From: a virus
DNA: 64,000 nucleotides
Virus genome (UHGV): UHGV-0018639
Reading direction: 5' to 3' (one strand)
This document shows positions 1,656 through 53,166 of this stretch, in pieces. The translations under genes and the position numbers were made by a program. The notes beneath the pieces were generated by a model that had not been told where the DNA came from, did no database searches, and saw nothing but the letters and a program-made list of their open reading frames with translations. Positions within the stretch are counted from its first letter, which is position 1. Each line of letters opens with the position of its first letter.

Positions 1656-4600
1656 ATGGCGCAAATACATTATAATTGTCTCGTTCCGGGCTGGACAGCA
1701 GATCAATGGAATGGGCAAGTAAATATAGGTTTTGAGCTTTCTTATAATAAAAACACAAATGAAACCACTGTAATTTTTACCGCTAATGAATGTTATCACA
1801 AGTATTTTGGTATTAATGGATGGGGTACTGAAGCCACCACTAATATCACAATTTATGCAACTGATAACACAGGTGATAAAAAAACTGGCTGGTTTTATAC
1901 TTACGGATATACTGATGGTGGAACAAAACAATTCAATGCAACACCAAGTAATATTGTTGTAAAGCACTCAAATGCAATCGGTGCAAAAAGTATCATTATT
2001 GAAACTTCGACTACAATAAAGGTGTATTTGAAAAAAGGTGTCCAATCAACTGGCACTGGTACTTATTCTGAAGCAGTTGCTTTACCAGCATCTCCAGTCA
2101 GCGTGCCGACTAGTTTTATGACCTCTGCGCAATCAATAATCATTCCGACTGGCTCAATTCCTTTGAGCTGGTCGGGTGCAACGGCTGGTATAAATAATGC
2201 AATAAAAGGTTATCACCTTTTCTGGAAAGTCGGCGGCGCACCAACAGCTAGTTCATATACAGATAAAATTGATGTTTCAAGTGCATCTTATACTATTAAA
2301 CTAAACTTGGGAGATAATCAACGAGGGCAAACGGTCTATACAGCAATTCAGACTTATGGTGAGATGGGGGTCAATTATGATTCTGACTTATTGGCTGGCC
2401 CTTCTGTTAAAATAAACTCACGACCAGCCGCGCCGGCCCTTTCGGCAACAAATGCAACATTGCCGTCAACAGTGGGTGCTTATAAGGTAAAAGTTGTGGC
2501 TGGTAAGGATAATGATCTATCACAAACTATTCAAGTAAGGCAAGGAGACGATGGCGAAGCGCAGGCAAGTGGAACGCAGTTCTCTTTTAATGGCGCTGGC
2601 ACTTTTACATTCTACTCTTTTGATGGATTAGAAAATTCAGCTACTGGAACCTCTATTACTATTATTCGTAATTCTAAGCCTGAAGTTGGCTCAATAAATA
2701 CGACTTTCTCAGCATCAATAAATACAAATGATAAGACTTTTTCAACAGCTCAACTCAAAAACGCAGATTCAAAAAAGCTAACTGCGGCGCAATGGTATAT
2801 ACGTTCAGCGGCAACTTCCGCTGAAATTTCAAGCGCAGCCGCGAGACAAATTACAACTGGCACAATTACAAACTCGTCAAGCGATGATAGCTCAAGTTGT
2901 ACTTTGATTATCAATCCATTAGCTTCTACTCCAATTGTTAATCCCGGCTACTACTATCAGATTGGCGTTCAACTCAAAGATGAGTATGAGTATAGTGATA
3001 TTGCTTGGTCAAGTAATATAAAGCAAATTTATGGCCAGCTTTCACTTACTTTGAATTCTATAACCGCTACTCATTTTGAAACAGGAATATCAGCGGCTTA
3101 TGCGTCTTATTATCGTATACCAAAAATAAATTTAAGCTGGAAATCGCCTGCTACTTTTCCAACTGGTCTTTCATCTTTATGGTATTCAATTTTCTATTCA
3201 ATAGATGCAGGTAATTCTTGGAAACAATGGAATAGTGGTATCCAATCACTTACTGCTAATACAACTTATACTCCAACAATTGATTTTTCAAGTGTAGGCC
3301 GTGGTGACTTTTTAGCAAAAATTGTTTTGTATGATAAGAAAGATGGCAGCAACCAGCAACTTGAGACTTCTATGTCAAACAAATTGTATTATTCACCAGA
3401 TCCGCAATGGATGGCTGGTTCAACCCCAACATTGGCCTATACAATAGAAGCGGACGACAACCGCACTTGTGTCCGTCCAAATTATAGTTCAAAAGGAACC
3501 AATGCGCTTACTTTATCTATTCCTTATCCGAGTACGATTAATACACTACTTCAAACTAATAAGGCTGACTTACAATATGCAATATATCTTTATCAAGATG
3601 GTAAAGATGTAAGTGCTGAAGTTCAAAGCAAGCAAAAAATTACGATAGGCGATAGTGCTGCAACAGAGACTGGCCCACTAAAACTTAATGTTGCTTACAG
3701 CAAGTTAACAAATCTTTATTCAACTTTTTTTGATAGCGATAAAACAAAATGGATTGGCCCTTATAATATGTCCATTATGGTGCGATTCTTTGATGCTTTT
3801 GAGGAATCAATTGATACGCCTAAAATGAGTTTTGTTTTAGACTTTCGTGAGAAACCAAAAAAAATTGAAACTTTAAAAATAGGTCGTGATGGCGTTCTGT
3901 CAAATAATTATGCCGCAGTAGCCGCAAAACGAAGCGCTAATACTGTAATTTTTCCGACTAGCTCTATTGACGCTGAAAAATCAATTTTAGTCGGTGAACA
4001 TTTAATAATTGCTTTTCAGAAGCCAGCCCTAAGCTATGAAGCACAAACAATTGGGCAATATATATTTACACTTTATAATAGTGAGCATAGTGCAATTTAT
4101 ACATATAGAACAGCCGATATTATTTCAGCTTCAATATATGGTGAGTCATCACTAAACTGCGTAGTAATTCCCGCGGCTGATTTTCTCAGTACAGCAACTA
4201 CTTTTTATGCAACAATTCGTCAGCAAGATAGTCAATCTTATAATGATAACATTAGTATCGAAAGCGATGGAAGTAATTCATTATGTGGTGGCTCATTAGA
4301 ACAACCAATAATCAATTTTGAAATGCCGGAACTATCTGTAAGTGGTGGTTCAATGAACATAACTGTCACTAAGAAGACGGCTTCTTTGAGTTGGAGCGGA
4401 ATTCAAGCAAAATATAATTCCTATTTGCGTACTATGGTATATGATGACATATCTTATAGCCCGCTTTGTAATTTATTTTTACAAATAAGTGAAAATAATG
4501 ATTTTAGTTCATCTTTTGAACTTCCATTGGCTAGTTACTCAAGCACTAATAAAACCTATAAGCTGGAAGCAAATGAATTTTCAAAAACTCTGAGTGATTT

Positions 4601-4967: not shown

Positions 4968-5045
4968 TGCACGTGAACTACTAAAATTTGATTTTTCCTT
5001 CAATTTATGTTATACTATTTATATATAAAGTAAAGGAGGATTAGT

Positions 5046-5426
5046 ATGCAGCTAGCCGAAGTAATACAATTTCAAACTGTATATAACACACTTGCTGAAG
5101 CAAAGCTTCCATTCAAGGTGGCTTATAAACTGAACAAGTTATACGAAGAAGCTCAAAAAGAAGCTGAGTGGTACAATAAAGAATTTAATTCAATCTTGAA
5201 TGAATATGGAATGAGAGACGAGAGCGGCAATTTCATTCATACCACTGATGGCCTTGCAATAAAAATACAAGAGGGTCGTGAAAGTGAGTGCCAAGCAAAG
5301 GTTCAAGAACTCGCGCAAGTTGATATAGAACTGAAATCTCCAAAACTTACAATGGATGATCTTTCAGCAATAGATGCTGAACTAACTGTGCGTGAGGTTG
5401 CAATTTTGATGAATTTCATAGAATAA
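5046..5426 (+). CDS. hypothetical protein
   Basis: RBS aaaggagga upstream. Followed by a rho-independent terminator. Confidence 0.45.
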   Translation: MQLAEVIQFQTVYNTLAEAKLPFKVAYKLNKLYEEAQKEAEWYNKEFNSILNEYGMRDESGNFIHTTDGLAIKIQEGRESECQAKVQELAQVDIELKSPKLTMDDLSAIDAELTVREVAILMNFIE

Positions 5427-5427
5427 C

Positions 5428-5467
5428 AAAAAGTCCCGAAGAGGCATAATGCTTCTTCGGGATTTGT
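5428..5467 (+). terminator. rho-independent terminator
   Basis: Hairpin cccgaagaggcat/atgcttcttcggg followed by a T tract. Confidence 0.6.
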
Positions 5468-5592
5468 GCATTTTGTTCAATTTATTCTGAGATAATTAAG
5501 TAAATTGCTGAATTTCTTTTACGCTTACCAATAAAATGTCTAATAAGTCCACTAGTGCTACTTCCATATGAAGAAACAAAGGAGGTAGTAAA

Positions 5593-5940
5593 ATGAATCC
5601 TTTTCAAACCAATACCGTGCAGCCACAAAATAGATTTACGCCATCTATGTTTATGACGCCGCAAGGTAATGTTTATGTCATTGATAGTCCACTTGAAGTA
5701 GCCAATGTTCCTATGGGGACGGGTTTATCTGTCGCAATTTGTCCTAATGAAAGTCTTATGTATCTCAAGATGTATCAAAATGGTGCGCCATCAATTACGG
5801 CTTATAAACTCGCTCCCTATGAACAGCCAACTGGCAATAGTAATTTAGACAAAGTTCTACAAAACATAACTGATAGACTTGACAAAATTGAAAAATCTCT
5901 TTTACCTAAAAAGGAGGAAAAAATAAATGACCTTCTCTAA
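5593..5940 (+). CDS. hypothetical protein
   Basis: RBS aaaggaggtag upstream of the ATG. The ORF overlaps the next gene by 14 nt. Confidence 0.4.
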   Translation: MNPFQTNTVQPQNRFTPSMFMTPQGNVYVIDSPLEVANVPMGTGLSVAICPNESLMYLKMYQNGAPSITAYKLAPYEQPTGNSNLDKVLQNITDRLDKIEKSLLPKKEEKINDLL

Positions 5941-6166
5941 CCCTTTACAAGCACTTATGCAGATGGGAAGAGGCCCAATGATGAACGCTCTTCCCAATAT
6001 ATCAAAACCAGCTCAAAATCCACCGATAAATATACAACAATTGAAGCAAGCACTCCCGCAACTCACTAAAGAAAATTATGTGCAATTGGTTTCTCAGGCC
6101 CGCGCACAAGGAATTAGTGAGCAAGATATTGAATCAGGACTCAACTTTCTTTTACAACTAAATTGA
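5927..6166 (+). CDS. hypothetical protein
   Basis: RBS aaaaggaggaaaaa upstream. Small Gln/Pro-rich protein. Confidence 0.35.
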   Translation: MTFSNPLQALMQMGRGPMMNALPNISKPAQNPPINIQQLKQALPQLTKENYVQLVSQARAQGISEQDIESGLNFLLQLN

Positions 6167-6220
6167 TTTACGTCCGGGGTAAGTCAATTTATATTATAAA
6201 TTTTTAGGAGGTTTTTTGTA

Positions 6221-6919
6221 ATGAACGAAGGACTTAGCGCTGGCGATATTCTCGCTTTGACACGTGATAATGATGATGGTATGAATAATGCTTGGAATAA
6301 CCCTTTTATTTATCTTGTTTGGCTGGCATTGTTAGGTGGTAATGGCGGACTCTTTGGCCGTCGTGACGACTGTGCAACGCAAGGTGCAATAACTCGTTCC
6401 GACTTGTTCGAAGGTTTCAGCAATCAAGATGTAAATGGCCAACTTCGCGGTATTACTAATGGTATATGTGATGGCTTCTATGCTATTAATAGTGGAATGA
6501 AAGACGGCTTCTATGGTAATCAAGCCGTAATCAAAGATGGCTTTTATTCCACTCAAGGCGCACTTGCTGAGAATAGGTTTCAACAGCAACAGTGCTGCTG
6601 CGAACTCAAGGGTGAAATTAAAAACATCGCAACCGAAGGCTATCGCAATACCTGCGAAATCACTACCGCAATTCATAATGAAGGCGAAGCAACTCGCGCT
6701 CTCATAAATGCTAATACAATGCAAGAACTCCGTGATAAGCTTGCTGATAAAGATAGAGATTTGCTTTATGCAAACTTCCAGAACTCTCAGCAGCTCCAGA
6801 ACGCATATTTAGTTGATACTTTGCGTCCAGTTAGCAGACCTGCATATATCACTTGCAGTCCATATCAATCTGTCAACTCTTGTGGCACATCCAGCTGCGG
6901 CTGTGGCTATGGCATTTGA
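6221..6919 (+). CDS. hypothetical protein with Cys-rich C-terminus
   Basis: RBS taggagg upstream. N-terminal hydrophobic segment. C-terminus reads CSPYQSVNSCGTSSCGCGYGI. Confidence 0.4.
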   Translation: MNEGLSAGDILALTRDNDDGMNNAWNNPFIYLVWLALLGGNGGLFGRRDDCATQGAITRSDLFEGFSNQDVNGQLRGITNGICDGFYAINSGMKDGFYGNQAVIKDGFYSTQGALAENRFQQQQCCCELKGEIKNIATEGYRNTCEITTAIHNEGEATRALINANTMQELRDKLADKDRDLLYANFQNSQQLQNAYLVDTLRPVSRPAYITCSPYQSVNSCGTSSCGCGYGI

Positions 6920-6963
6920 GCCAACTCACCGTGAGTACATATCCGTATCAGGGGTGAAACTAA

Positions 6964-7380
6964 ATGGTAGATAGTTATAATATTCAATCTCAAACTGTTG
7001 ATGTAAATGGCTTACTTACATTTCCTATCAATTCCATATTGACAGGCTGTACTGTTAGCCATACAGCAGGTAGCACGACATTCTCACTCAATAAGCCCGG
7101 ACTTTATTTTGTCTCCTTTAATGCGGTTGGCACTATATCTGGTGCTACTGCTGGCGCAATAACCGTTCAACTCCAGAATAATGGCACAGCAGTTCCGGGC
7201 GCGCTTAGCTCAGATACATCTGCATCAACAACTGACGTTCGCAATCTTTCTTTCACAAAAGTAATTCGAGTCAATCCATCTTGCTGTGCGGTTAATAATC
7301 AAGCTAATCTGACATTTGTAAATATAGGACTTGGTGCGATTTATACCAATGCTAACGTGGTAATTACCAAATTGGCATAA
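6964..7380 (+). CDS. hypothetical beta-rich structural-type protein
   Basis: Gly/Thr/Ser/Asn/Val-rich 138 aa. Weak resemblance to C1q/BclA-C-terminal-like folds only. Confidence 0.35.
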   Translation: MVDSYNIQSQTVDVNGLLTFPINSILTGCTVSHTAGSTTFSLNKPGLYFVSFNAVGTISGATAGAITVQLQNNGTAVPGALSSDTSASTTDVRNLSFTKVIRVNPSCCAVNNQANLTFVNIGLGAIYTNANVVITKLA

Positions 7381-7389
7381 GGAGGCAAT

Positions 7390-7692
7390 ATGGTAAAATA
7401 TAAAGCGCTTTATAAAGCAATGTATGATGACTTGAAAGATAGTGAAATGATGATTTGTTATGCTAATGAAATTCGTGAAAATAAAGAAGATGCGGCTTTG
7501 GCCGATGTTATAGCCAAATATGCACAATATAGGCTAAATCACTTTATGGAGTTTCATAAGTTGTTTGAAAATGAAGCGTCAAAAGAGCCGCAAGTCAATG
7601 CTGAATCAGTAGCTTATTGTATGTGGGATATAACCCACGAAATGATGATGGACTGGTATGGTTCCATCAAACAAAAAATAGAAAAATTCTAA
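7390..7692 (+). CDS. hypothetical protein
   Basis: RBS aaggaggcaat upstream. Last gene of the plus-strand block. Confidence 0.4.
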   Translation: MVKYKALYKAMYDDLKDSEMMICYANEIRENKEDAALADVIAKYAQYRLNHFMEFHKLFENEASKEPQVNAESVAYCMWDITHEMMMDWYGSIKQKIEKF

Positions 7693-7696
7693 TTTT

Positions 7697-7735
7697 GAGG
7701 GAGGAGCATAATGCTCCTCTCTTTTTATTCCCAAG
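7697..7735. terminator. bidirectional terminator at the convergent strand switch
   Basis: Palindrome gaggagcat-a-atgctcctc flanked by T/A tracts, between convergent genes. Confidence 0.5.
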
Positions 7736-8468
7736 AAATCATTTTTCGGTTTGGTGCACACTGTCGGACGGCATAGGTGCCAATTCCTATTGCATCAGCT
7801 TCGTCTTCACTAACAGATACGTCGTACCATTGTTTTGCTAGCTGACGCATTGATCCTTTTTTGTCGCTTCTTGATCGCCCTTTAACCCCGCACTCTTGAC
7901 GCCAGACCCCTGTGTGACATAAAGTGTAGGCAATTCCTAACTCAAAGCAACACTCAATCAAAATTCCTTGAAGCCACGCAAGCTGTTGAAAAACATCAAC
8001 ACCCATCATACGTTTGCCTTCGCTTTCATTTTGAAGTTGAATATTTTCCAATGCCACTAAGTCAGGCTGCCAATTATGTAACATATTGACGAGCCAAACC
8101 TTTACAGCATTACTCCGCGCTATTGTATCAGGTAATTGAGTTTGGTAGGTTCCATATTTAATAAGTTCTTTGTCGTCAAAAATTGAGAATCCTGTGATGT
8201 GTGTTGCTTGATCGAGTGCAAGCACACGAAACACATTCTTCTTTTTTGGAACAATTTTAGATGTAGTTGCTTCTGTCTTATATACATTAGCCTCGCAGGT
8301 AGGGCATATTCGTTTTGCGCGAAGCTTTTTCCAAGGGGCGAATACGGAGTGCCCTTCTGGGCACTCGAATCGCATTTCTGTTTCAAGATTTGTGTATGTG
8401 TCGCTTATAACTTTCCAGCCGTCTTGCTCTAATTCCTCTTTAATTGAATCTAATGAAATTTTTGCCAT
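7725..8468 (-). CDS. RuvC-family Holliday junction resolvase with N-terminal zinc finger
   Basis: VLALDQATHITGFSIF matches the RuvC motif I acidic site. SEDEADAIGIG matches the C-terminal catalytic Asp motif. The N-terminus has a CPEGH...CPTC zinc ribbon. Confidence 0.65.
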   Translation of the reverse strand: MAKISLDSIKEELEQDGWKVISDTYTNLETEMRFECPEGHSVFAPWKKLRAKRICPTCEANVYKTEATTSKIVPKKKNVFRVLALDQATHITGFSIFDDKELIKYGTYQTQLPDTIARSNAVKVWLVNMLHNWQPDLVALENIQLQNESEGKRMMGVDVFQQLAWLQGILIECCFELGIAYTLCHTGVWRQECGVKGRSRSDKKGSMRQLAKQWYDVSVSEDEADAIGIGTYAVRQCAPNRKMISWE

Positions 8469-9409
8469 TAAAACTTTCCGGTAGAACCGAAACCGCCCTG
8501 ACGGTCTTCCGCTCCATAGAGAGTTATGTCATCAACTTCTTGCCAACTTATTTTGGGGACTTCGGCAAGAACTAACTGGGCGATTTTCTGACCTTTTGTT
8601 ATGTAGATAGGGGAGCCGTGAAGAATTGACGTGATGATAGGACGATGAGTTTCATCGTCAAACTCATAAGTTATATCTTTGATTGCAGGCTCATTGTTTT
8701 CAAGAATTATGCCAATCTCGTCGTGAAATCCTTCATCGACAGTGCCAATTGAATTGGCGATACGCATATGAGTGCGAGCTGATAGACCTGACTTAGCGCG
8801 CACCTGTATTTCATAACCTTTCGGCAAAGCCACTCTCAAACCAGTCGGGATTATCTTGATTTCGCCGGGGTCAATCGTATAATCATCGAGCGCAAACACA
8901 TCAAGGCCGCTGTCAGTTGTATGGGCATATTCAGGAAGCCTTATTTCACTAAACAGCCGCTGTACAGGCACACTCACAACACGACGTGCGATTCGCTCAT
9001 TTTCACCAAGCGCATTTGCAACTATACCAAGAATGGATTTGAAGAAATCTATTTTGACTTGAGAAATCTTACCATCCAGATTTGTTTGCAGTTTTTCCGC
9101 AATGTTGGCCAGCTCATCCATCATATCCTCAGCCGCGACGCCTTGAATTGAAAGGTTCTGCGCAATACCAAGCTGAATCTGCGGGTCTTTGAAGGCACTA
9201 TAAAAGTTCTCCAAAACGCCAGCCGCAACTACCATAAATTGCTCGTCATCAAGGCTCATCAAGCTAGAGAATGCCTTGACATACTCATCAGCCTCGTCTT
9301 CGTCTATTAAATTACCGAAGAAAAACGAAAAGGTGTCGCGCAATGTCTGTTCGATATCTTCTTCAGGCATTTCAATCGGCTTACCTGAAATATCTATTAT
9401 TTCACTCAT
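8468..9409 (-). CDS. dut: dUTP diphosphatase (dUTPase) with ~150-aa N-terminal extension
   Basis: All five trimeric dUTPase motifs are in the C-terminal half: AKSGLSARTH, GTVDEGFHDEIGIIL, GQKIAQLVL, RQGGFGSTG. Confidence 0.8.
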   Translation of the reverse strand: MSEIIDISGKPIEMPEEDIEQTLRDTFSFFFGNLIDEDEADEYVKAFSSLMSLDDEQFMVVAAGVLENFYSAFKDPQIQLGIAQNLSIQGVAAEDMMDELANIAEKLQTNLDGKISQVKIDFFKSILGIVANALGENERIARRVVSVPVQRLFSEIRLPEYAHTTDSGLDVFALDDYTIDPGEIKIIPTGLRVALPKGYEIQVRAKSGLSARTHMRIANSIGTVDEGFHDEIGIILENNEPAIKDITYEFDDETHRPIITSILHGSPIYITKGQKIAQLVLAEVPKISWQEVDDITLYGAEDRQGGFGSTGKF

Positions 9410-9720: not shown

Positions 9721-10983
9721 TCAATCTTTATTTTTCAAAATCAGATTGAGAATAATACCAGCTATAAGAGCAAGTGCAGTAGCGGAAATTGAAAAATCAG
9801 CGCCACCAATCGCAAGGCCGCTTATGCCGAGAGAAAGAACCGCAGAGACAATTATCAAGTTCTTTTGCTCATTCAAATCAACTTGCTGCAGCATTTTTAC
9901 GCCACTACAAGCAATAAATCCATAGAGAACAATTGCCGCGCCAGCAAAAACGCAAGCCGGGATTGAACTAATAAAAGCTTGGACCGGCACAAAGAAGCCC
10001 ATAAGTATCAATATAAATGCGGCGGTTCCGCTCACTTTCGCAGAAGCAACTTTGCTAAATCCAACACAAGCAACGCCTTCACCATAAGAGCAAGCGCCGA
10101 GTCCGCCAAGTAAACCACTAACAGCATTTGCAAGTCCTTCACCAGCAAAGATACGGTTAAGGCCGGGCTTTTTGTAAAGATCAATACCAATTATATTACT
10201 GAGCGCGGCGTGATCGCTAAGAGCTTCCATCATTGCACTTATAGTGTAAGCAATAAACAAAATTATAAGAGGAATAAGCTGCGGCAGTTCAATAAATTTG
10301 CCCCAATCAACGTGAGAAACCGCGAGGTCAGGCAATGCGAAAAGGGCCATATTTTCAAAGACGTTAAAATCGACAACAGGAAAAATCTTCGTGATTGTCA
10401 GAATAATTGCATAAATATAACCAACTAAAGTGCCAAGCAGGAACGGGAGAATCTTTATAATTCCTTTCGCATAATGTGAAAAGAGTGCAATTGCTATCAT
10501 TGTGATGATAGCTACACTAACGCCCCACATATTAGTTTCGCCATTTATCTGAACATAAGTCAAGATAAAAGGCATAAGGTTAATACCTATAACAACCGTG
10601 ACTGCGCCGATCAATGACTTAGGAAAAATTTTATATATATTTTCAACAGGAACACGACTAAAGATAAGACCAAAAATTGTATAAACAACCCAAATTACAA
10701 AACAGCCAATAATTGCGCCTTCATAACCACAAGAAGTAAGTGCAATTATGATAGGAGCGACAAAAGCGCCAGAGTTTGAAATGAACATTGGGGATTGTCC
10801 TTTTGTTATAAGAATATAAGCCAGAGTACCACAGCCCGCGCCAACGAGTGCACCAGATACGGCGACACCACAAATATTAGCAATGAGCGTTGTGGCAACT
10901 ATAATTGACAGCATCATTTGTATTGAGAATAATAAAAGCTGCCCGAATGGAATTTTATCATCTAAAGAATATTTCATTACCAA
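9721..10983 (-). CDS. nucleobase:cation symporter-2 (NCS2) family permease, uracil/xanthine permease-like
   Basis: About 12 TM segments. Spacing and motifs parallel UraA/PyrP: LGYIYA, EALSDH, and GLLGGLGACSYGEGVACVGFSKV matching GFFGSTPNTTYGENIGVMAITRV. Confidence 0.7.
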   Translation of the reverse strand: MVMKYSLDDKIPFGQLLLFSIQMMLSIIVATTLIANICGVAVSGALVGAGCGTLAYILITKGQSPMFISNSGAFVAPIIIALTSCGYEGAIIGCFVIWVVYTIFGLIFSRVPVENIYKIFPKSLIGAVTVVIGINLMPFILTYVQINGETNMWGVSVAIITMIAIALFSHYAKGIIKILPFLLGTLVGYIYAIILTITKIFPVVDFNVFENMALFALPDLAVSHVDWGKFIELPQLIPLIILFIAYTISAMMEALSDHAALSNIIGIDLYKKPGLNRIFAGEGLANAVSGLLGGLGACSYGEGVACVGFSKVASAKVSGTAAFILILMGFFVPVQAFISSIPACVFAGAAIVLYGFIACSGVKMLQQVDLNEQKNLIIVSAVLSLGISGLAIGGADFSISATALALIAGIILNLILKNKD

Positions 10984-11825
10984 ATCACCTTATATTTTAT
11001 TTTATTTGTTTTAGCTATTTGCCTTTTTAGAGGGTCTTTTTCCGTCCAATTTTTTATAGCGTATTGGAAATATTTAGATGACTTGGCTTTTTCTTTCCAT
11101 TTTTTTAGTTGTTTTATATCTTCTGGATTCGATTCCTCAAAAAAATGGCCTCCATGAGTCCAATGCCTATTTAGTTCAATAAATAAATCTTCCGATACGA
11201 TATAAAAATCACAAAAGAAAGGATACCGTTTTTCATCTTTATAATTTCTCAAAACATTTTCTTTTCCATATTGTTGACAAAGTTGTAAATATAAATCTTC
11301 CTCTGGTTTGGAAATTCTAAAACTATTATTTTTTCTTTTTGTCTCAGCTTGTTTTTTTAGGGTTTTTGGCCAATCCATATTTTTTGTACGCCATTTATAA
11401 AAATTTTCTAAAGATCCATATTTTTGTATCATGGTTTTATTTCTTTGGGCTATATTATGATAATTATGAGGATCTGGCCATAAGATTTGATTTGTGGCTT
11501 TAGTTTTTTCTTTTATTTTCTCGGCTTTTGCTGGATTAGAAACCCCATATTTTTGATAACAAGTTTTTTCAGCTTTCTTTTTTACGGAATCTAATTGATG
11601 GACATTATCTACTCCGTATTTTTTTTGGCAAGTGGCTCTTCGTCTTTGGTTAGAAACTTTAATTTGAGTTGGATCACGGGGTTTCATTCCTCGCTGCCAT
11701 CCTTGCTCTAAGTATTTTTCTAGCTCTGATGATAGGACTCTTTTATTTATTTGCCCATTGTTGATAAAAAGCCCTGACGAATGAGATTGGCTCATTCGTG
11801 AGTCGCCTCCCAGTCCTGAAGCCAT
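10977..11825 (-). CDS. homing-endonuclease-like protein: N-terminal KYGV-repeat basic region plus C-terminal PD-(D/E)xK-like motif
   Basis: Repeated QKKYGVDNV / QKYGVSNP / IQKYGSLENF motifs in a Lys-rich region. The C-terminal FFCDFYIVSEDLFIELNRHWTHGGH resembles the FDFAIF..EYNGEQHY nuclease core of the paralogues at 32037, 35326, 36184 and 43476. Confidence 0.35.
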   Translation of the reverse strand: MASGLGGDSRMSQSHSSGLFINNGQINKRVLSSELEKYLEQGWQRGMKPRDPTQIKVSNQRRRATCQKKYGVDNVHQLDSVKKKAEKTCYQKYGVSNPAKAEKIKEKTKATNQILWPDPHNYHNIAQRNKTMIQKYGSLENFYKWRTKNMDWPKTLKKQAETKRKNNSFRISKPEEDLYLQLCQQYGKENVLRNYKDEKRYPFFCDFYIVSEDLFIELNRHWTHGGHFFEESNPEDIKQLKKWKEKAKSSKYFQYAIKNWTEKDPLKRQIAKTNKIKYKVIW

Positions 11826-12298
11826 TTTATTACGTCTTCAATATTATCTACTAAAACGCCGCCTTGCTTAATAAGACCAACAGTATAAAGATTCTGATAA
11901 CAGAACTGACTCTCACCAATATCAAAACGCATTATTTCGGCTTTAGCATCATTGTATGTGCGACTTGCCATACGACTATCAGTACAAATACCGATAATCA
12001 TTTTCTTGTCTCCGCGCGCAATTTTTTCGTGAAATTTGCCAATTTCTGCACTTGTTCCAGAAGGAATCACATCGCCATCAATGCAAGCAACAAGAACATC
12101 AGTTTCATCCAAGCGTGCATTATCTCCATCCGCAATCTGCCAAGAGCTTGCACATTTTGTTTTATCATTTATTTCTTTATTTTCCAGAGGATTATAGAGG
12201 TTGATTCCGGGAATAGCATCACGAATTTGTGCGCTCCATTTCTCATTTCTCATTCTATCTCCTTCACAAAAGATTGGCCCCGCCAAATAAACATTCAT
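11792..12298 (-). CDS. nucleoside 2-deoxyribosyltransferase family protein
   Basis: MNVYLAGPIF, the N-terminal NDT motif. Acidic catalytic region DVLVACIDGDVIPSGTSAEIG. The likely start is the internal Met, which overlaps the upstream gene in an ATGA arrangement. Confidence 0.65.
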   Translation of the reverse strand: MNVYLAGPIFCEGDRMRNEKWSAQIRDAIPGINLYNPLENKEINDKTKCASSWQIADGDNARLDETDVLVACIDGDVIPSGTSAEIGKFHEKIARGDKKMIIGICTDSRMASRTYNDAKAEIMRFDIGESQFCYQNLYTVGLIKQGGVLVDNIEDVIKWLQDWEATHE

Positions 12299-12696
12299 TC
12301 GTCTATATCCTCCAAATAAATTATTTTTTTCTCTAATTGCTTTGCCCATTCAATTTCACGTTTTGTGGATTCACCAATATAGCCATTCTTGTTTATTACA
12401 AAAATCATATCAGACATTGAAATTTTAGCTAGATGCATACGGTCGAGCTGTTGTTTTTCTTTCTCTGTCATTGTATCACCGTAATGCCCATAAATCTCAG
12501 GACTTAGGACAATATAGCCTGCAATTGTAAATTCTTTGCGATATTGCTGAAACAAAGGAAGAAACTTAGTACTGCCACACAATGTAATAATGGGAAACTC
12601 ATTTTGGTAGTTCCGCACTAAAATTTTATTAGTTATTTGTTGTCCCACATTCATCCTCGATTCCCATTGCTGCACTAGCTGCTTTATAGCCCTCAA
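12295..12696 (-). CDS. NDT-superfamily / DUF4406-like protein
   Basis: IITLCGSTKF parallels the hhhhaGP nucleotide-binding start. The C-terminus MIFVINKNGYIGESTKREIEWA parallels the DUF4406 W-E-S-G-E-A motif. Confidence 0.4.
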   Translation of the reverse strand: MRAIKQLVQQWESRMNVGQQITNKILVRNYQNEFPIITLCGSTKFLPLFQQYRKEFTIAGYIVLSPEIYGHYGDTMTEKEKQQLDRMHLAKISMSDMIFVINKNGYIGESTKREIEWAKQLEKKIIYLEDIDE

Positions 12697-12883
12697 TATA
12701 GCCCATTGTATGTTCTTTATTCAGCCTTTCTTGAATATTCTTATAAACTTGCGGGAATAAACTTGCTATCACAAACTCAAAAGAAAGTTCAAGCTCATCT
12801 GTGTTTCCATTATACGTTTTTTCTACTTGCTCAATTACTCGTTTTATGTGCATGAATCGAACCTTATCTAAATTTTCGTCCAT
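12629..12883 (-). CDS. hypothetical protein
   Basis: 84-aa ORF overlapping neighbours; start uncertain. Confidence 0.25.
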   Translation of the reverse strand: MDENLDKVRFMHIKRVIEQVEKTYNGNTDELELSFEFVIASLFPQVYKNIQERLNKEHTMGYIEGYKAASAAMGIEDECGTTNN

Positions 12884-13461
12884 AATTTCTCCTTTCCATA
12901 ATGTAGGGTTAAAGCGCCAAATGAATTACCTAATGCAGCAACTAAAATTTTTCGGAAGGAAATTGGTATAGAGCTTGCTGCTGAATAAAACATATTAGCA
13001 ATGCAGTGATCAAAACCACAATAAACAAATAAAAATACAGGGAGCATTATAGCAAGAAGAGACTTTGTTCGTTTGAATCCTTCAACTGCGCAATAGACAC
13101 ATACTCCGCACAAGTAGGAGCTAAAGAGTAAATTGGCATATGACATTTCTGCTTTTGAAGAAGCAACTAAATCGGCCAAAAATGGATTTACCCACCACAC
13201 CAATAAACCCAATAGTGCGGCGCCAGCGAAATTTGCAATAAGCATTATACTTAAATCAATAAGATCTGCGCCATCACCTACATAAGCAATGCGGCCAGTG
13301 TAAAGCGGAAGGCCAAGTTCTAAAATTGAGACAAGCCCAAAGCTAAATAACAATGCACCCAATATCTTATTTTGGCTAATGAGGTTGGCATATCCGCCAA
13401 CCCCAATTAGCATACCTGCAAAGAAAGCAGGAATTATATTATAGCTATCTTTTTTTATCAT
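12868..13461 (-). CDS. formate/nitrite transporter (FNT) family channel, short form
   Basis: FNT signature GFDHCIANMF matches FocA GFEHSIANMF. ELGLPLYTG matches GAELFTG. C-terminal LGNSFGAL matches LGNIVGG. Consensus promoter just upstream. Confidence 0.6.
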   Translation of the reverse strand: MIKKDSYNIIPAFFAGMLIGVGGYANLISQNKILGALLFSFGLVSILELGLPLYTGRIAYVGDGADLIDLSIMLIANFAGAALLGLLVWWVNPFLADLVASSKAEMSYANLLFSSYLCGVCVYCAVEGFKRTKSLLAIMLPVFLFVYCGFDHCIANMFYSAASSIPISFRKILVAALGNSFGALTLHYGKEKLWTKI

Positions 13462-14982: not shown

Positions 14983-15742
14983 ATTATCCCATATCCCTAT
15001 GGGTACTGACTATATCTTCATTCCACTAAAAAGTGGAGTTGTCTTCCGCTTCGAGTGAGTGCCTATCTCTCACCCTACTCCCTTACATTCATCAGGGATA
15101 GTCGATACACTTCATTCATCATAATAAAAATTATAAGGAGTATTATTTGTCCGTTGCTGTAAAAGAAAGGTCCTGATACGATGTCTATCAATACCAGTTT
15201 TACGTTCGCATTCTCTCATTGACTTATAGTGAAAACGTTCTTTTGTCTCTTTATTTTCAGCAATTATCCAAATTCCACGCCCTTTATGCGGATTTATATA
15301 ATTGTTTTCCTGATAAGCCTTTCTAATATTTTCGCTGTGAGATACGGCCCGCAAATTAGAAAGTTCATTATGTGATTTATTTCCATCAATATGGTCTACA
15401 ACTGTACAATTATCAAGAAAAACTTCCGCCATAAGGCGATGAACGCGAGTTCGTATTCGATTGCCACCAAGACAAAGAACTACGTGTTGATACATATCAA
15501 TGCCAATATATGGACTAATTATTCTTCCCGTTTTAAAATTGATTATTTGAGCATCTTCATTTATACCAAATTGATTATTCAAACTTGGAATGGGCATAAA
15601 TTCTTTCATTATCTCACCTCCTTTTCATATTTATGATATATGATGAATTTTAGCACGGCCTCATCTGTTCTAGACCTAGCCGTTAGCCGCATTTGCGACA
15701 CCCGCGGGCGCGGTTCAAAAGATTTTATATGAGCTGCAGTTT
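14983..15742 (-). mobile_element. group I intron in nrdD carrying an HNH homing endonuclease ORF (boundaries approximate)
   Basis: About 760 nt separating the two nrdD halves. Non-coding flanks are structured; the flank motif ...gggatagtcgatac... recurs in the ORF-less insertion at 23919-24132. T4 nrdD (sunY) also has a group I intron. Confidence 0.6.
15112..15609 (-). CDS. HNH homing endonuclease (intron-encoded)
   Basis: HIDGNKSHNELSNLRAVSHSEN HNH motif. N-terminal IINFKTGRIISPY is AP2/NUMOD-like. Confidence 0.75.
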   Translation of the reverse strand: MKEFMPIPSLNNQFGINEDAQIINFKTGRIISPYIGIDMYQHVVLCLGGNRIRTRVHRLMAEVFLDNCTVVDHIDGNKSHNELSNLRAVSHSENIRKAYQENNYINPHKGRGIWIIAENKETKERFHYKSMRECERKTGIDRHRIRTFLLQQRTNNTPYNFYYDE

Positions 15743-18267: not shown

Positions 18268-19728
18268 TTACTCACCCCTTACATGAGTTGTTATACGGCC
18301 ATATTCATCAATATCTGTTATTTCTTCAACCAGATGGTATGGGGTTCGGGAATATTTCTTCGCCAGAAATCCATCATCCTTTCTAATGCCACATACGATT
18401 ATCTTGTTGCCACGTGAGAAAGTGCTGCGACTGATAACGTGTTTCTTCCCATCAGGCCCTCTCTCCGAAATTTGCTTATCATAATTAGCAAATGCTTCGC
18501 CAAAAATTTTGACCTGAACAACGCCATCTTTTGTCAATAACGAAACAATTTTCTTTGCCTTATCCCTATCCAATACAGTTCCGCAAATACGATGTATTCT
18601 ATAAATCGGAACCGGCGCGCTATCACTATCCTTGCCGCGCGGTTTGAAGTAAGTCTCAACATCAGGCTGCTCTTTCAGTTTGAAGAAGTTTGAAAAGCCT
18701 TGCGCACGTTCATCAACATTTTGAAGTTCATGTTCGTGGAAATAACATGAAACGCTATCCATCTCCCACTTGCTTATTGAACCAAGACAATATTTATTCC
18801 AGATATCTCGCGTTAATCGCTCATTCACGGTATCTAGCAACTCATCATGATTTTCTTTTATCCACTTGCGGACATTATCCATATATTTCTTATAAATTTT
18901 GTCCCAAGCCGTGATGTTAATTTTGAAGCCACTTTCAGTTTCATTGCTTGCGCTCAAACAGTCAAGTGAAAAATTCTTATCAAGGAAATTCAATGCGATA
19001 TTATCTATGCCATAGAATGATGTGTCTAACTTCATTTTCTTGAGATACTTTGTGAAGTTATAAACACGACGCTCAAAATCAAGATTTTCGGGAATCAACC
19101 CAAAGTTTATCAACATTGCCATATTCTGAAGAGTGATACGTTTCTTTGTGTCGCTAATCAGGCTGACATATTCGCGCATTAAATCTACTCTATCACCAAA
19201 TGCATCAAAAGCTCCGCATTTTATGAGGTTTATCATTTGTGGCTTGTTGATTTTTACTTTGGAAAGAAAATCGGAGATTGAGTTATAGGGTCGATTTGCG
19301 ATTATGGATTTAACGATGTCTTCGCCGACTTTGACGATACCGCTCATACCATAACGAATTGTTGAATTTTCAACATCAGGAGAGAAAGTAAAAGTAGATT
19401 TGTTGATATCTGGAGGAGAAACCGAAATACCGGCCATTCGCATTTTACCGATTGCTGATGCAATTTTGCCATAGTTAGTCGTTTTGACTTTTTTCTTTTT
19501 CTTTTTTACATCAATTTTTTCTTCTTCGTCTTCATCTTCGTCGTCATCTTCGGTATCATCAACAAATTCTTCAATACAGTTGTTATAACTATATTCAATA
19601 ATATCTTCTGGCGTTTCGTCATCGTTCTCATCATTTGATTCATTGCCGCCGCTATCGCTAATCAAACACGCGCAATTCCAAAAAATTGTTGGAAAACGAT
19701 ATGCAAGATTCATTTCCTGCAAAGCCAC
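18268..19728 (-). CDS. DNA polymerase III alpha (DnaE-like), C-terminal portion (fingers/HhH/OB)
   Basis: GISVSPPDINKSTFTF matches the DnaE (V/I)LPPDIN.S..F motif. Long acidic linker. C-terminal OB-like region. Confidence 0.6.
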   Translation of the reverse strand: MALQEMNLAYRFPTIFWNCACLISDSGGNESNDENDDETPEDIIEYSYNNCIEEFVDDTEDDDEDEDEEEKIDVKKKKKKVKTTNYGKIASAIGKMRMAGISVSPPDINKSTFTFSPDVENSTIRYGMSGIVKVGEDIVKSIIANRPYNSISDFLSKVKINKPQMINLIKCGAFDAFGDRVDLMREYVSLISDTKKRITLQNMAMLINFGLIPENLDFERRVYNFTKYLKKMKLDTSFYGIDNIALNFLDKNFSLDCLSASNETESGFKINITAWDKIYKKYMDNVRKWIKENHDELLDTVNERLTRDIWNKYCLGSISKWEMDSVSCYFHEHELQNVDERAQGFSNFFKLKEQPDVETYFKPRGKDSDSAPVPIYRIHRICGTVLDRDKAKKIVSLLTKDGVVQVKIFGEAFANYDKQISERGPDGKKHVISRSTFSRGNKIIVCGIRKDDGFLAKKYSRTPYHLVEEITDIDEYGRITTHVRGE

Positions 19729-20855
19729 AAGCGAGTAGGAAAGAGTATGTGCTCGACAACTTACCGCACATAGTTTCTTATGCCAGATTTACTCTGTTGC
19801 GGTCTGGACTATACCATCAATTTCATTGTTTCCAATGAAAAAGTCCTTATTATAGTCTCTGAACGTTTTTCTTATCTCAATATATTTTCTATTCATACCA
19901 AAAGGCTTATTATAAACTAGAGCGATTAGTTTTAGGATATTGAACTGATTAGCGGTTTCAACTCTATATAAGCTATCTTCAGTTTTTCTTATATGTAAAT
20001 CTTCCATAAAGAAATTTTCTACTAAGATTTTTTCAATCCATTTGATAAATTCTTCAGATGCTGATACTATATAAAATTGAGCACCGCCATAAGAAGTTTT
20101 ACTGACACACCCATCACCGTCTATTATACCACGAATAATGTAAGGCAAATATCGCTTTTCTTGCTCATACAATTGCGGCGCCGGTATAATATATGTTTTA
20201 TTCTTTATTATACCATAACGGGCAGCCTCAGCTTGAAGACCCGGCCTATTTATCAATACCCTATATCGAGTTTGCTTTCCAGCTTGAGGATAGGCCTTAT
20301 AAGTTATTCCAATTCCTTTAGCTATAAAAGCAATAACATCTTCGTCCACCATATCCAACCCTAAGCCATCTCGATCGCTCAATAGATATCCATCCGTAAG
20401 CAGTAGCCCGATTAGATATGCATCGAACGGACTTTTGATTTCAGATAACGAATAGGTATATCCTCGACGATTATCTTGCGCTTGCCGTATAATTTCTTGA
20501 TATTCATCTGGATAATACTTTTTTACCTTGTCGGTTATAGACTTCTTTGTTTTATAACCATATCGACCCATTAGCTCTGAAACCGATGCCCCATTCTTAT
20601 ATTCTTCAACTAATTTTAGTTCATCTTCTTTTGATATTTTCTGATAACCCATAGTATATCCCTCCTAAGAATAAGTAGCCCTATTCAAATAGAAATACAC
20701 TAAAATAAGAAACTTCGCTGCGGATTATCCAATTCTAAATGATTTTACTATACCCTCTCTCTTTCTGAGAGGCCGCGATATTATTGCTAATATCGTTTAG
20801 TTATTTAGACTCTAAGGAAGTCCCCGCAATTTCAAGGATTTATACTCGTCTTGTA
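19729..20855 (-). mobile_element. intervening sequence in DnaE-like gene carrying a LAGLIDADG endonuclease (probable group I intron; boundaries approximate)
   Basis: Polymerase N- and C-terminal parts are contiguous ORFs on the same strand separated by ~1.1 kb. About 200 nt of structured non-coding flank lies at 20653-20855. Confidence 0.45.
19789..20652 (-). CDS. LAGLIDADG homing endonuclease (double-motif)
   Basis: Two LAGLIDADG motifs: LIGLLLTDGYL and IIRGIIDGDGCV. N-terminal HTH-like region. Confidence 0.8.
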   Translation of the reverse strand: MGYQKISKEDELKLVEEYKNGASVSELMGRYGYKTKKSITDKVKKYYPDEYQEIIRQAQDNRRGYTYSLSEIKSPFDAYLIGLLLTDGYLLSDRDGLGLDMVDEDVIAFIAKGIGITYKAYPQAGKQTRYRVLINRPGLQAEAARYGIIKNKTYIIPAPQLYEQEKRYLPYIIRGIIDGDGCVSKTSYGGAQFYIVSASEEFIKWIEKILVENFFMEDLHIRKTEDSLYRVETANQFNILKLIALVYNKPFGMNRKYIEIRKTFRDYNKDFFIGNNEIDGIVQTATE

Positions 20856-29155: not shown

Positions 29156-30058
29156 TTACTCTTGATTTTGAGCAAGTTCAGCATATCTTTTTTCCTCTTC
29201 TCCAGAGGAATAGAGTCTCGTGGATTTTATATCATAAAAGTTTTTCATTGCTTGATATTTTCTTTCCATATAAATAGAATTGGGCACATACAGAATCTCA
29301 AAAAGTCTTAAGATAGTGTCTTTTTTATAAACTTGTATTGTATAAAAATGGTCGCCTTGACTGAGCGTCGCTGTGCTGGTCGAAAGAGAGGTAATAATAC
29401 CATATTTATTCAGAAGAACTTGCCGCATCCATTCAATAACTTCTTTTCTTGCTCCACAAATATACCAATTATAATGATATTTTTTATAATCAGTCCAAAT
29501 ACATCCATCTCCATCAAAATATCCTCGAATATAAGAGATAAAATATTGTTCATCAAGAAAAGTCGGCGGTGTTAGAGTAAAAGTTTTACGAGGTATTATT
29601 CCATAATGGGCTAAATCTTGTTTGATAGTATGACTACAAACTCTTAGCCGGCTATACTCACAACCTGAATTATTTGTATAATGCTGAATAGGTCCCTCAT
29701 ATTTTAGTTCTTCTTTTATCTTATACAATATTTCTTCATCGGATCTTTGAATATCTATTGTAAAATGATTCGTATCTTTTGATACTCCGCCATCGGAAGC
29801 TAAAAATCCAAGAATATAAGCCATATTATGAGATTGTATCTTGAAATAATCGTCATTAACATTATAAGCTCGACATTCTTTTGCAGCTTCTTGCCGATTA
29901 CGAACCTTTACTCCCCATTTTTTCAAGTATCTTTGAATTGTCGCTCCTGAAGCTCCTCCAACATCTCGGCCAATAGCATTTACGCCTCTTTTTAGAACTG
30001 TATAATTATAAATTATAAATTCTTTTTGTTCATCTGTAAATGAAATAGATTTACCCAC
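29156..30058 (-). CDS. LAGLIDADG homing endonuclease (double-motif)
   Basis: ILGFLASDGGV and IRGYFDGDGCI. Confidence 0.8.
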   Translation of the reverse strand: MGKSISFTDEQKEFIIYNYTVLKRGVNAIGRDVGGASGATIQRYLKKWGVKVRNRQEAAKECRAYNVNDDYFKIQSHNMAYILGFLASDGGVSKDTNHFTIDIQRSDEEILYKIKEELKYEGPIQHYTNNSGCEYSRLRVCSHTIKQDLAHYGIIPRKTFTLTPPTFLDEQYFISYIRGYFDGDGCIWTDYKKYHYNWYICGARKEVIEWMRQVLLNKYGIITSLSTSTATLSQGDHFYTIQVYKKDTILRLFEILYVPNSIYMERKYQAMKNFYDIKSTRLYSSGEEEKRYAELAQNQE

Positions 30059-42093: not shown

Positions 42094-42905
42094 TATCCTA
42101 CTCTCTCATTTAATCCAAATTTTTTTGTGTCATAAAATTCAGTCCAATATTTTTCGCGTTCAGTCAGCTTATCTTTTGAAACTTTTTCCAATAATTCAAA
42201 AGTAAAATTTTCAATCCCATCTTCCTCCATTATAGTATGAAGGCGCGAATGACTGATGGTGCCACAATGATAGGCAGACTTAGCGTGTTGAATCCAACGG
42301 TCGCGCACATTTGTGGATTTGCCTATATAAATTTCGCCTGTTTTTTCGCGTGTGATTTTATAGATGCCACTTGGTTGTTCTCCGTTTAAGACACGGCGTG
42401 TCATTTCAAGGACAGGTTTAGCACAATAAGTATCATATATCATTTTATCTATATCAATGCGGCGATTAAGTTTAGGGGCTATTTCGCGCAAGACTTGTAT
42501 GTCATTTAATGCCTCAGGAGACAAATTGACTTTGAAGAAGGTCTGTTCTTCAATCTTTTTCTTTTCACGGCGTATATCTTCATTTAAAACTTCGCGGCGT
42601 TCGCGCAAAGCATCAAGAGCTTTTTGGACAATATCACATTGATATTGCGCATCTTGTGTTTCTTGGTTTATTTGTTCTATTCGAGCGTTATATTGAAGTT
42701 CAACTTCATCAAGCTCTTGTCGATATTTCTCCCTTGCTTCTAAAACATTGCGCGCCGCTTCGTCTATAATTTCTTTTTCTTTTTGTAAAACTAAATTTTT
42801 TTTATAATAGTGAATGTATATAAAATTAGCAATTATCAGTGCAACTATTATGAATATGGCCATTACAATTCCTCCTATATTTCTTACTATATATAAGTAT
42901 ATCAT
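42093..42905 (-). CDS. GIY-YIG nuclease-domain protein with N-terminal TM helix and coiled coil
   Basis: C-terminal GIYKITREKTGEIYIGKS...R...H...E GIY-YIG fold. Hydrophobic helix at residues ~15-35. Long coiled coil. Confidence 0.55.
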   Translation of the reverse strand: MIYLYIVRNIGGIVMAIFIIVALIIANFIYIHYYKKNLVLQKEKEIIDEAARNVLEAREKYRQELDEVELQYNARIEQINQETQDAQYQCDIVQKALDALRERREVLNEDIRREKKKIEEQTFFKVNLSPEALNDIQVLREIAPKLNRRIDIDKMIYDTYCAKPVLEMTRRVLNGEQPSGIYKITREKTGEIYIGKSTNVRDRWIQHAKSAYHCGTISHSRLHTIMEEDGIENFTFELLEKVSKDKLTEREKYWTEFYDTKKFGLNERVG

Positions 42906-52892: not shown

Positions 52893-52902
52893 ACCCACAT
52901 AT

Positions 52903-53163: not shown

Positions 53164-53166
53164 TAT

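Follow-up and report, generated by a model that had tools for sequence, protein, structure and literature searches.

An NCS2-family permease gene coupled to a nucleoside 2-deoxyribosyltransferase gene in large uncultured phages

The nucleotide-supply genes of phages are usually viewed as encoding intracellular enzymes, such as ribonucleotide reductase (RNR), dUTPase and thymidylate synthase, and phage genes for nucleoside 2-deoxyribosyltransferase (NDT), for NrdDG and for dUTPase are routine annotations. Here, we analyzed a module of the virus genome UHGV-0018639, located at positions 9721-13461 of a 64,000-nucleotide stretch (the window), in which an NDT gene is accompanied by the gene of a permease of the NCS2 family. 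The module lies entirely on the minus strand and is flanked by nrdDG on one side and by a dUTPase gene on the other. An earlier note on this DNA had named an NCS2 permease, an NDT, an NDT/DUF4406-like paralogue and an FNT channel there. All four protein families are already known, and our profile scores agree with the four assignments and their positions, the DUF4406-like match being sub-threshold only.

The nearest NDTs from cultured phages (phrog_1817), which are 33-45% identical to the window NDT, belong to Bacillus phages such as Thrax1 and PBC2, to Geobacillus phage GR1 and to Lactococcus phages of the 949 group. In Bacillus phages the NDT gene sits inside an RNR/dUTPase cluster, and in Thrax1 and vB_BcoS-136 it directly precedes nrdE without a transporter gene. 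Lactococcus phage phiL47 has the order gyrase, two small open reading frames (ORFs), NDT, PnuC-family transporter (PF04973, E 7e-19), nrdD and nrdG, with an 8-nt overlap between the NDT and PnuC genes, and further on it encodes a class I RNR, a guanylate kinase and a dUTPase. In Geobacillus phage GR1, PhoH and NDT genes are followed by the gene of a 93-aa PQ-loop (SemiSWEET-like) membrane protein (PF04193) that overlaps the NDT gene by 4 nt, and an RNR lies nearby. The window NDT shares the RNR/dUTPase-cluster position of these enzymes, and such gene orders indicate that an NDT within this type of cluster is an old theme in large Firmicutes phages.

The partner of the NDT gene differs from case to case: it is coupled to an NCS2 permease gene in the window, to PnuC in phiL47, to a PQ-loop protein in GR1 and to no transporter in the Bacillus phages. 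Searchable papers list these phage genes without mention of an NDT-transporter pairing, and we found no experimental study of any such pair; literature searches on phage NCS2 proteins, on phage NDT with a transporter, on PnuC with NDT and on DUF4406 function returned no relevant study. As with phage PnuC-type uptake genes, the permease would be a virus-supplied importer that feeds biosynthesis, and the PnuC gene of phiL47 itself adjoins NDT and nrdDG. Unlike them, it belongs to another transporter family, its probable substrate class is nucleobases rather than vitamins or nucleosides, and no such importer paired with a transglycosylase has been described before.

Pairing of NDT and permease genes

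In the window, the NDT (168 aa, 12298-11792) and the permease (418 aa, 10977-9721) are separated by a 272-aa homing-endonuclease-like ORF of the DUF7487 type (11795-10977; PF24308, E 7e-14, with matches to PHROG homing endonucleases). The permease had been described as lying directly beside the NDT, which holds for close relatives but not for the window itself. In the relatives L001-L003 and L014, which lack the endonuclease ORF, the NDT stop codon and the permease start codon overlap as ATGA. The endonuclease ORF is inserted exactly at this ATGA: it uses that ATG for its own start, and its TAATG end overlaps the start of the permease gene. It is a free-standing mobile passenger outside the pathway, whose insertion kept the coupling intact. 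On the other side of the NDT gene, its start codon and the stop codon of the DUF4406-like gene also overlap as ATGA, preceded by GGAGG. In other relatives, the NDT/permease junction or its vicinity is occupied by GIY-YIG genes or by various small ORFs.

We sampled this arrangement from both of its partners. A search of IMG/VR with the permease gave 16 loci (57-94% identity, contigs up to 154 kb), and an NDT gene adjoined the permease gene in all 16, on either side of it: some loci have the order dUTPase, permease, NDT, and others have the NDT gene upstream, as in the window. Permease homologues were also present on contigs of 212-423 kb, which represent jumbo phages encoding DnaE and giant structural proteins, in the order nrdD, nrdG, DUF4406-like, NDT, small ORF and permease. 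A gene census of 23 loci found through the permease, the window included (genomes of ~120-420 kb), recorded the permease in 23/23 and the NDT in 22/23. The exception was a 2-kb contig that begins inside the permease gene, so the NDT was present in 22/22 testable loci. By comparison, dUTPase and nrdD were each found in 18 of the 23 loci, DnaE in 15 and the DUF4406-like gene in 10.

The independent sample consisted of the 80 best loci that an NDT alignment retrieved from IMG/VR. A permease gene lay within 1.5 kb of the NDT gene and on the same strand in 77 of them, and the three contigs without a permease stop at most 420 bp past the NDT gene (77/77 testable loci). The permease was downstream in 73 loci and upstream in 4. 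As the proteins of these loci were 34-94% (permeases) and 55-62% (NDTs) identical to those of the window, the pairing has survived long divergence, inversion of the gene order and insertion of small ORFs. Conserved adjacency and translational coupling across ~100 phage loci therefore strongly back a putative joint function of permease and NDT. Moreover, three carrier families (NCS2, PnuC and PQ-loop) have been recruited 3' of an NDT gene, which suggests that importer and NDT form one functional unit; this non-orthologous displacement of the carrier is the strongest argument for such a unit.

The permease and the two NDT-fold proteins

The permease scored 184.4 bits against PF00860 (cut-off 27; E 3.6e-54), over profile positions 1-383 of 389. 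It aligned with Escherichia coli UraA over residues 8-417 (E 1e-40, ~28-30% identity), UraA residues 9-407 being covered by the HMMER alignment, and the best structural match of its AF2 model (pLDDT 70) was UraA 3qe7 (TMq 0.81 over 431 columns), with a TMq of 0.74 for UraA 5xls. Membership in NCS2 is thus well founded, but the 12 transmembrane segments proposed previously are not, as the protein aligns with the whole of UraA, which has 14 (PMC5539350). Hydropathy counting of the segments merged neighboring helices.

In UraA, uracil is hydrogen bonded by Glu241 and Glu290 and is also contacted by the backbone amides of Phe73 and Gly289, and His245 is a candidate proton-coupling residue (PMC5539350). 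A MAFFT alignment of the window permease with UraA and a bacterial PyrP placed S71 at Ser72, G72 at Phe73, E253 at Glu241, D257 (followed by H258) at His245, G301 at Gly289, E302 at Glu290, G303 at Asn291, Y354 at Tyr342 and I357 at Ile345. E253, G301 and E302 were invariant in an alignment of 13 permeases. Among 64 full-length NDT-linked permeases, all 64 had both Glu residues, the Asp that replaces His245, the Gly that replaces Phe73, and the equivalents of Tyr342 and Ile345. The Gly289 position is Gly in the window clade and Thr or Ser in some sister clades, and the Asn291 position is variable, being Gly in the window clade and Ser, Asn or Tyr in sister clades. A loss of the NCS2 substrate-binding residues, which would have spoken against a nucleobase carrier, was thus looked for and not found: permeases of the window type keep the equivalents of Glu241, Glu290, Gly289, Ser72, Tyr342 and Ile345. 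In its full-length homology, its 14-segment fold and these residues the protein resembles UraA, PyrP and RutG; it differs from UraA in the invariant Asp followed by His at His245, in Gly for Phe73 and in Gly for Asn291, and its gene adjoins NDT in phages rather than pyrR or upp.

The best-scoring curated models for the permease were uracil permeases. However, the score against the uracil-permease equivalog NF007995 (UraA/PyrP) was 203.9 bits, far below the cut-off of 477, and with Asp in place of His245 and the signature Asn absent, the name "uracil permease" given in the earlier note is too specific. The Asn of the NAT signature, which follows the Glu or Gln of transmembrane segment 10, is important in XanQ and UapA, and a Glu-x-x-x-Asp in segment 8 is typical of xanthine/urate members such as these two. 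If the Glu-x-x-x-Asp of the phage permeases is of this xanthine/urate type, the site mixes pyrimidine- and purine-type features and no substrate can be called.

The resemblance to uracil permeases would fit a scheme in which the imported base serves host phosphoribosyltransferases and the raised nucleoside triphosphates are then reduced by NrdD, with the NDT separately interconverting deoxynucleosides from host DNA. The position of the pair, which is always in or near the nrdDG cluster, agrees with this scheme as well. We nevertheless rate it as improbable, since it leaves unexplained both the translational coupling of permease and NDT in ~100 loci, in both gene orders, and the coupling of NDTs to PnuC or PQ-loop carriers in other phages.

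The permease family is essentially phage specific. The protein database contained more than 2000 homologues as 90%-identity clusters, of which the best 120 were 67-92% identical, and every context of a homologue that we examined was phage-like. A pattern-based scan of 185,579 species genomes returned two mis-binned short contigs of metagenome-assembled genomes (MAGs) with phage-like context and a third match (L023), which is an ordinary permease and, at only 28% identity, the nearest genuine bacterial gene found; the gene next to it is PyrR-like by our own reading of its sequence. On this result we discarded a recent capture of the permease from a host. tblastn against cultured phage records gave only matches of at most 33% identity, mostly unannotated or fragmentary, the annotated ones being prophage or bacterial-genome records, and we identified no bona fide homologue from a cultured phage among them. 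The statement that such a permease is unusual for a virus is therefore right for cultured phages and for the literature but not for metagenomes.

One phage-like MAG contig carries NDT, GIY-YIG endonuclease, permease, dUTPase and NT5C nucleotidase genes. In L021 (9083-9940), binned as "Clostridia bacterium" but a relative of the window phage, genes for dUTPase and an NT5C-family 5'-deoxynucleotidase come after the permease gene, and this nucleotidase would supply deoxynucleoside substrates for the NDT.

The altered site of this phage-specific permease, in which Asp replaces His245, Gly replaces Phe73 and the Asn291 position varies, could also suit the import of an unusual base, from which the NDT would make a deoxynucleoside that, once incorporated into the phage DNA, protects it from restriction. 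NDTs are promiscuous towards base analogues, and the phage has its own DnaE-type polymerase. The earlier note had held such a base-modification route to be equally possible, but we found no evidence in its support, and we consider it a rather remote alternative. No PurZ, DpdA, hydroxymethylase or glycosyltransferase, nor any other modification gene, was seen in the 64-kb window; the presence of a dUTPase and of an EcoRI-like adenine methyltransferase hints at ordinary DNA that contains T and is protected by methylation; and reliance on a rare base from the environment would be risky for a lytic phage.

The NDT assignment was upheld. The protein scored 47.1 bits against PF05014 (cut-off 28.8), matched phrog_1817 with an E value of 2e-26, and matched PDB entry 7m5h with an E value of 4.6e-24; according to the fold-search table, 7m5h is an uncharacterized Enterococcus faecalis protein deposited as an NDT. 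DNPH1 was not recovered in a sequence search with the NDT. Across 11 phage NDTs, Tyr21, Asp76, Asp84, Asp91 and Glu102 were invariant, the last within the motif SGTSAEIG. By analogy with the Y7F, D62N and E88Q variants of the C. thermalis NDT, the Tyr, Asp and Glu are probably the catalytic residues. PF05014 membership and retention of these residues are features that the protein has in common with Lactobacillus-type NDT (EC 2.4.2.6) and with the NDTs of large Firmicutes phages. A preprint reports purine-specific activity for one of the phage NDTs tested (10.1101/2025.10.22.683976).

The 119-aa DUF4406-like protein is encoded immediately upstream of the NDT, at 12654-12295. Its description as an NDT/DUF4406-like paralogue holds at the level of the fold but not of the profile, as it scored 19.3 bits against PF14359 (cut-off 22), compared with 21.4 bits for its homologue in L015. 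The top Foldseek matches of its AF2 model (pLDDT 84) were NDTs from T. brucei and C. thermalis (2a0k, 8pqq; TMq 0.58-0.68), and the next were DNPH1 and MilB (TMq ~0.6-0.66). A sequence-profile search of the family against the PDB found nothing, so that the predicted fold alone ties the family to NDTs, and the precomputed table lists no Pfam domain for it. The family comprises more than 1000 clusters with a core of ~100 aa, and its members at 50-60% identity include proteins from a bacterial genome and an archaeal MAG.

C26, G27, S28, T29, F31, H57, H74, K77, N88, the Y92-I93-G94 triplet, T97 and E100 are invariant in the family. In its predicted fold and in the invariant Glu that follows a G-x-S-T, at the position of the nucleophile in the GT-x-x-E motif of NDTs, the protein is like DNPH1/Rcl and MilB; it differs from NDT and DNPH1 in its invariant Cys and two His and in its much shorter core. 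We suggest that it is a second enzyme of the NDT fold acting on N-glycosyl bonds, with either transferase or nucleotide N-glycosidase activity. Its gene immediately follows nrdG in L015 and in the jumbo phages, and its role may be tied to the RNR.

Some DUF4406-like homologues (L015, 8180-8689; P0141, P0142 and P0146) have an N-terminal Cys-rich extension of ~60 aa with the pattern CCC...CxC...CHC, which may be a metal or redox module. A ferredoxin-thioredoxin-reductase-like domain was considered for this extension and dropped, as there was no such Pfam match. On a 509-kb bacterial contig (L031, GCA_965352015.1), the region 5001-8825 encodes a 102-aa DUF4406-like homologue and, ~2 kb further downstream on that strand, a 452-aa Xan_ur_permease, in a string that also holds a DHH protein and a flavin reductase; the proximity to a permease could be fortuitous.

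The fold matches of the small protein bear on two further explanations. The first is that the NDT-fold proteins are mainly N-glycosidases acting on (deoxy)nucleotides or nucleosides, for pool sanitation or catabolism, and that the permease recaptures or expels the released base. The model of the small protein fits DNPH1 and MilB almost as well as NDTs, and its invariant CGS loop after strand 1 resembles what we take to be a DNPH1 motif. A comparable role was proposed for a phage NDT that would deplete dA in favor of dZ in diaminopurine phages (preprint 10.1101/2025.10.22.683976). We consider this explanation unlikely: proteins of the PF05014 type are clearly the nearest to the larger NDT, whose sequence did not find DNPH1, characterized NCS2 proteins such as UraA are importing proton symporters (PMC5539350), and the combination of NDT with PnuC or PQ-loop carriers of the uptake type in other phages fits supply better than disposal.

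The second is that the NDT-fold enzymes serve counter-defense, by destroying nucleotide-derived immune signals or toxic nucleoside analogues or by bypassing dNTP-depleting defenses, with the permease as an accessory. TIR and ThsB folds were among the distant structural matches of the small protein, and salvage would naturally offset a depletion of deoxynucleoside triphosphates (dNTPs). Nevertheless, the TIR-type matches were weak (TMq at most 0.5), no module protein had a PADLOC match, and the context is purely one of nucleotide metabolism, so we regard this proposal as very unlikely. Each of the four alternative explanations accounts for the coupling of NDT and importer less well than the model that we develop below, base import followed by transglycosylation.

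A putative route from imported bases to deoxynucleotides

We favor a model, which we regard as evenly poised between right and wrong, in which the permease would import nucleobases and the NDT would transglycosylate them onto deoxyribose, feeding a dNTP supply that supplements NrdD-based de novo synthesis. The NCS2-family permease, predicted to be proton coupled, would bring a free nucleobase into the infected cell, and the co-translated NDT would move 2-deoxyribose from an abundant deoxynucleoside onto this base via its conserved Glu nucleophile, as in the conversion of thymine plus dU or dC to dT. Host or phage kinases would then convert the resulting deoxynucleoside to the dNTP. The dUTPase, and the NT5C nucleotidase in some relatives, would be part of the same dNTP-supply program, and the genes from nrdD to dUTPase are closely packed in a single string. 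The most economical purpose would be to replenish or even out the pools of pyrimidine and purine deoxynucleotides while an AT-rich, ~130-kb genome replicates in an anaerobic habitat rich in bases. The earlier note had proposed a pathway of import and transglycosylation; cooperation of NDT and permease is borne out by the coupling, the carrier swaps and the retained residues, but FNT membership and uracil specificity are not.

Formation of thymidine from thymine without thymidylate synthase is an attractive possibility within this model, suggested by gene content: we found no ThyA or ThyX among the scanned window ORFs of at least 110 aa, the window being about half of the genome, nor in the listed 30-80 kb stretch of phiL47.

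Several observations weigh against the model. The substrate of the permease cannot be read from its sequence, because the equivalog cut-off was failed, His245 is replaced by Asp and the NAT-signature Asn is missing. Enzymes of the NDT fold can be nucleotide hydrolases, as are DNPH1 and MilB, both of which are among the fold matches of the small protein. The window yielded no phage deoxynucleoside kinase, only a weak dNMP-kinase match, and as the window covers about half of the genome, a thymidylate synthase may be encoded elsewhere. The loci bearing the pair all come from a single broad lineage of phages that have DnaE-type polymerases, so that part of the NDT-permease adjacency reflects common descent. 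Promoter and terminator scans for operon boundaries gave nothing above shuffled expectation. Finally, the adjacency of the FNT gene to nrdG is confined to one species-level group, and the two distant short FNTs whose context we examined are from other phages and do not lie beside nrdDG.

The FNT gene (13461-12868) encodes a channel protein of 197 aa that scored 78.1 bits against PF01226 (cut-off 34.6; E 8.8e-22) and 51.7 bits against the FocA equivalog TIGR04060, below its cut-off of 290.1. It matched FocA 3kly with an E value of 4e-6, having ~35 fewer N-terminal residues; its FDHCIANMF aligned with FEHCIANMF and its LYTG with LFTS/LFTG. We take the Thr of LYTG and the His of FDHCIANMF to be the pore residues of the Omega-loop and S-loop, respectively. 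PF01226 membership and these two residues are shared with FocA, NirC and HSC; unlike these proteins of ~250-285 aa, the FNT belongs to a short, phage-associated subfamily of 172-197 aa, and its gene follows nrdG instead of lying beside pflB.

In IMG/VR the FNT was found only in four near-identical close relatives from one sample. The protein database added a few homologues at 86-94% identity, including DAF81592.1 (Caudoviricetes sp.), the closest named relative, and a thin set of distant ones (172-196 aa, 32-39% identity). Short FNT-family proteins of 182-193 aa are encoded on the unrelated phage contigs L028, where the gene follows those of a Hydrolase_2 cell-wall hydrolase and a 55-aa ORF (3252-4401), and L030 (66-647), which hints at a membrane- or lysis-related role of the short subfamily. 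With its distribution confined to the closest relatives and its distant homologues in unrelated contexts, the FNT, counted as a member of the module in the earlier note, is a lineage-specific late add-on outside the conserved salvage unit.

The FNT would most plausibly admit formate, which is the reductant of NrdD of the E. coli/T4 type (PMC4493059). The uninterrupted NrdD of L003 reads PCMGCRSFL (Met-Gly-Cys loop) and matched 9d3x (E 3e-136) and T4 NrdD 1h78 (E 2e-111) far better than Thermotoga maritima NrdD (E 3e-7). For a burst of 100 genomes of 130 kb, with all dNTPs made via NrdD, we estimated a demand of ~2.6e7 dNTPs, or ~43 mM formate-equivalents in 1 fL. A supply of formate by the FNT to a T4-like NrdD is a tentative proposal drawn from the gene order of one lineage, and the link stays weak because the distant FNT homologues are not next to nrdDG.

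Phage setting of the module and its wider meaning

The module is preceded by nrdD and by nrdG (14062-13493; class III RNR activase, PF13353, E 2e-45; phrog_626, E 7e-54). As these genes are also on the minus strand, transcription reaches the module after nrdDG, and the upstream position stated previously is incorrect. In the ORF list, nrdD consists of two exons (16927-15743 and 14982-14002), interrupted exactly at the codons of the catalytic thiyl loop, between CMG and CRSFL, by a ~760-nt sequence (about 14983-15742) that contains an HNH ORF (15609-15112). The gene is uninterrupted in the relatives L002, L003 and L014. A search of the intervening sequence against Rfam recognized no group I intron, even at E 0.1.

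Within the module, the earlier note had overlooked two genes: the endonuclease-like ORF discussed above and orf84 (84 aa, 12883-12629), which overlaps the FNT gene by 16 nt and the DUF4406-like gene by 26 nt. orf84 had no match in Pfam, PHROG, NCBIfam or PADLOC and is kept in close relatives only, being 90-99% identical in L001-L003 and L014. The likely true starts of the permease, NDT and DUF4406-like genes are the ATG codons at 10977, 12298 and 12654, respectively; the longest-ORF extents exceed them, reaching a TTG at 10983 for the permease, 12349 for the NDT and 12696 for the DUF4406-like gene.

Downstream of the permease gene lies orf80 (80 aa, 9648-9406), which had no family match in Pfam, PHROG or PADLOC and is conserved between permease and dUTPase in L001-L003, L014, L015 and many of the NDT-sampled loci. 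It is followed by the dUTPase gene at 9409-8468 (PF00692, E 4.6e-14, residues 156-240; phrog_135, E 2.4e-46), as near to the module as had been reported, and by the gene of a RuvC-like resolvase (8468-7725). The dUTPase has an N-terminal extension of ~140 aa without a family match; the extended form is kept in relatives, and other clades have a plain dUTPase of ~147 aa without it. The best promoter-like match in the region, at 9715-9656 on the minus strand between the permease stop codon and orf80, has TTGACT, a 17-nt spacer, TATAAT and an extended -10 TG, with a small hairpin after it. This match could mark an internal promoter that serves orf80, dUTPase and ruvC, the overall scan not being above chance. 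Rfam searches over 7-24 kb gave no riboswitch or other RNA clue to the substrate, and a megablast comparison of the region with 50,697 phage records found no match.

The module is surrounded by a long series of minus-strand genes for replication and nucleotide metabolism, and the source element is clearly a large phage. Its genome is AT-rich and has a size of ~130 kb, and the G+C content of the window is ~38%. Replication genes in the window encode a DnaE-type polymerase split by an endonuclease, a RecJ-like exonuclease, a DnaB-like helicase, gyrase A and B, a ligase and RNase H. The DnaE-like polymerase (18268-23360, minus strand) consists of 834-aa and 486-aa ORFs separated by a 287-aa endonuclease ORF (19789-20652), and over the 486 aa of its C-terminal part it shares 41-42% identity with jumbo-phage genes annotated as PF07733. 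The replication module is unusually dense in endonuclease genes, of the LAGLIDADG, GIY-YIG, HNH and DUF7487 types and one other, which are found at 29156-30058, 42093-42905, 19789-20652, 15112-15609 and 10977-11795.

Thirteen tRNA genes with interspersed ORFs occupy 50349-56922 on the plus strand. The ORFs within this array encode an SPFH/Band-7 protein (50502-51404), a metallophosphoesterase (52308-52892) and the EcoRI-like adenine methyltransferase (53195-54385), and beyond it lie genes for a ClpP/NfeD-like protease (57030-57653) and PhoH (58205-58738). In the Bacillus phages Thrax1 and vB_BcoS-136, a prohibitin/Band-7 gene likewise adjoins the NDT/RNR cluster.

Three aspects of these findings appear to be new: a phage-specific NCS2 clade that has an altered motif and comprises more than 2000 clusters at 90% identity, the invariant pairing of this permease with NDT by translational coupling, and the recognition of PnuC and PQ-loop carriers in the same slot in other phages. 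It is possible, though doubtful, that an NDT with a dedicated importer, for which NCS2, PnuC and PQ-loop proteins would be interchangeable, represents a general and unrecognized strategy of phages of the large Firmicutes type. Such a strategy would turn bases or nucleosides from outside the cell into thymidine or other deoxynucleosides without thymidylate synthase or folate, or would bring an exogenous non-canonical base into DNA, and the specificity of the NCS2 clade would then be unlike that of characterized transporters.

If our model of import and transglycosylation is true, it gives a function to NDT genes that have long been annotated in large Firmicutes phages, and it defines a new NCS2 subfamily that is easy to assay and whose binding and coupling motif is altered. 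Pairs of NDT and transporter would also be useful for the whole-cell synthesis of nucleoside analogues. The FNT gene beside a formate-type NrdD raises the idea that phages also import reductant for anaerobic dNTP synthesis. More broadly, very abundant uncultured phages of ~120-420 kb would carry their own base uptake wired to a transglycosylase, so that their precursor supply would reach the extracellular pool, and the availability of bases in the gut or rumen would modulate phage productivity.

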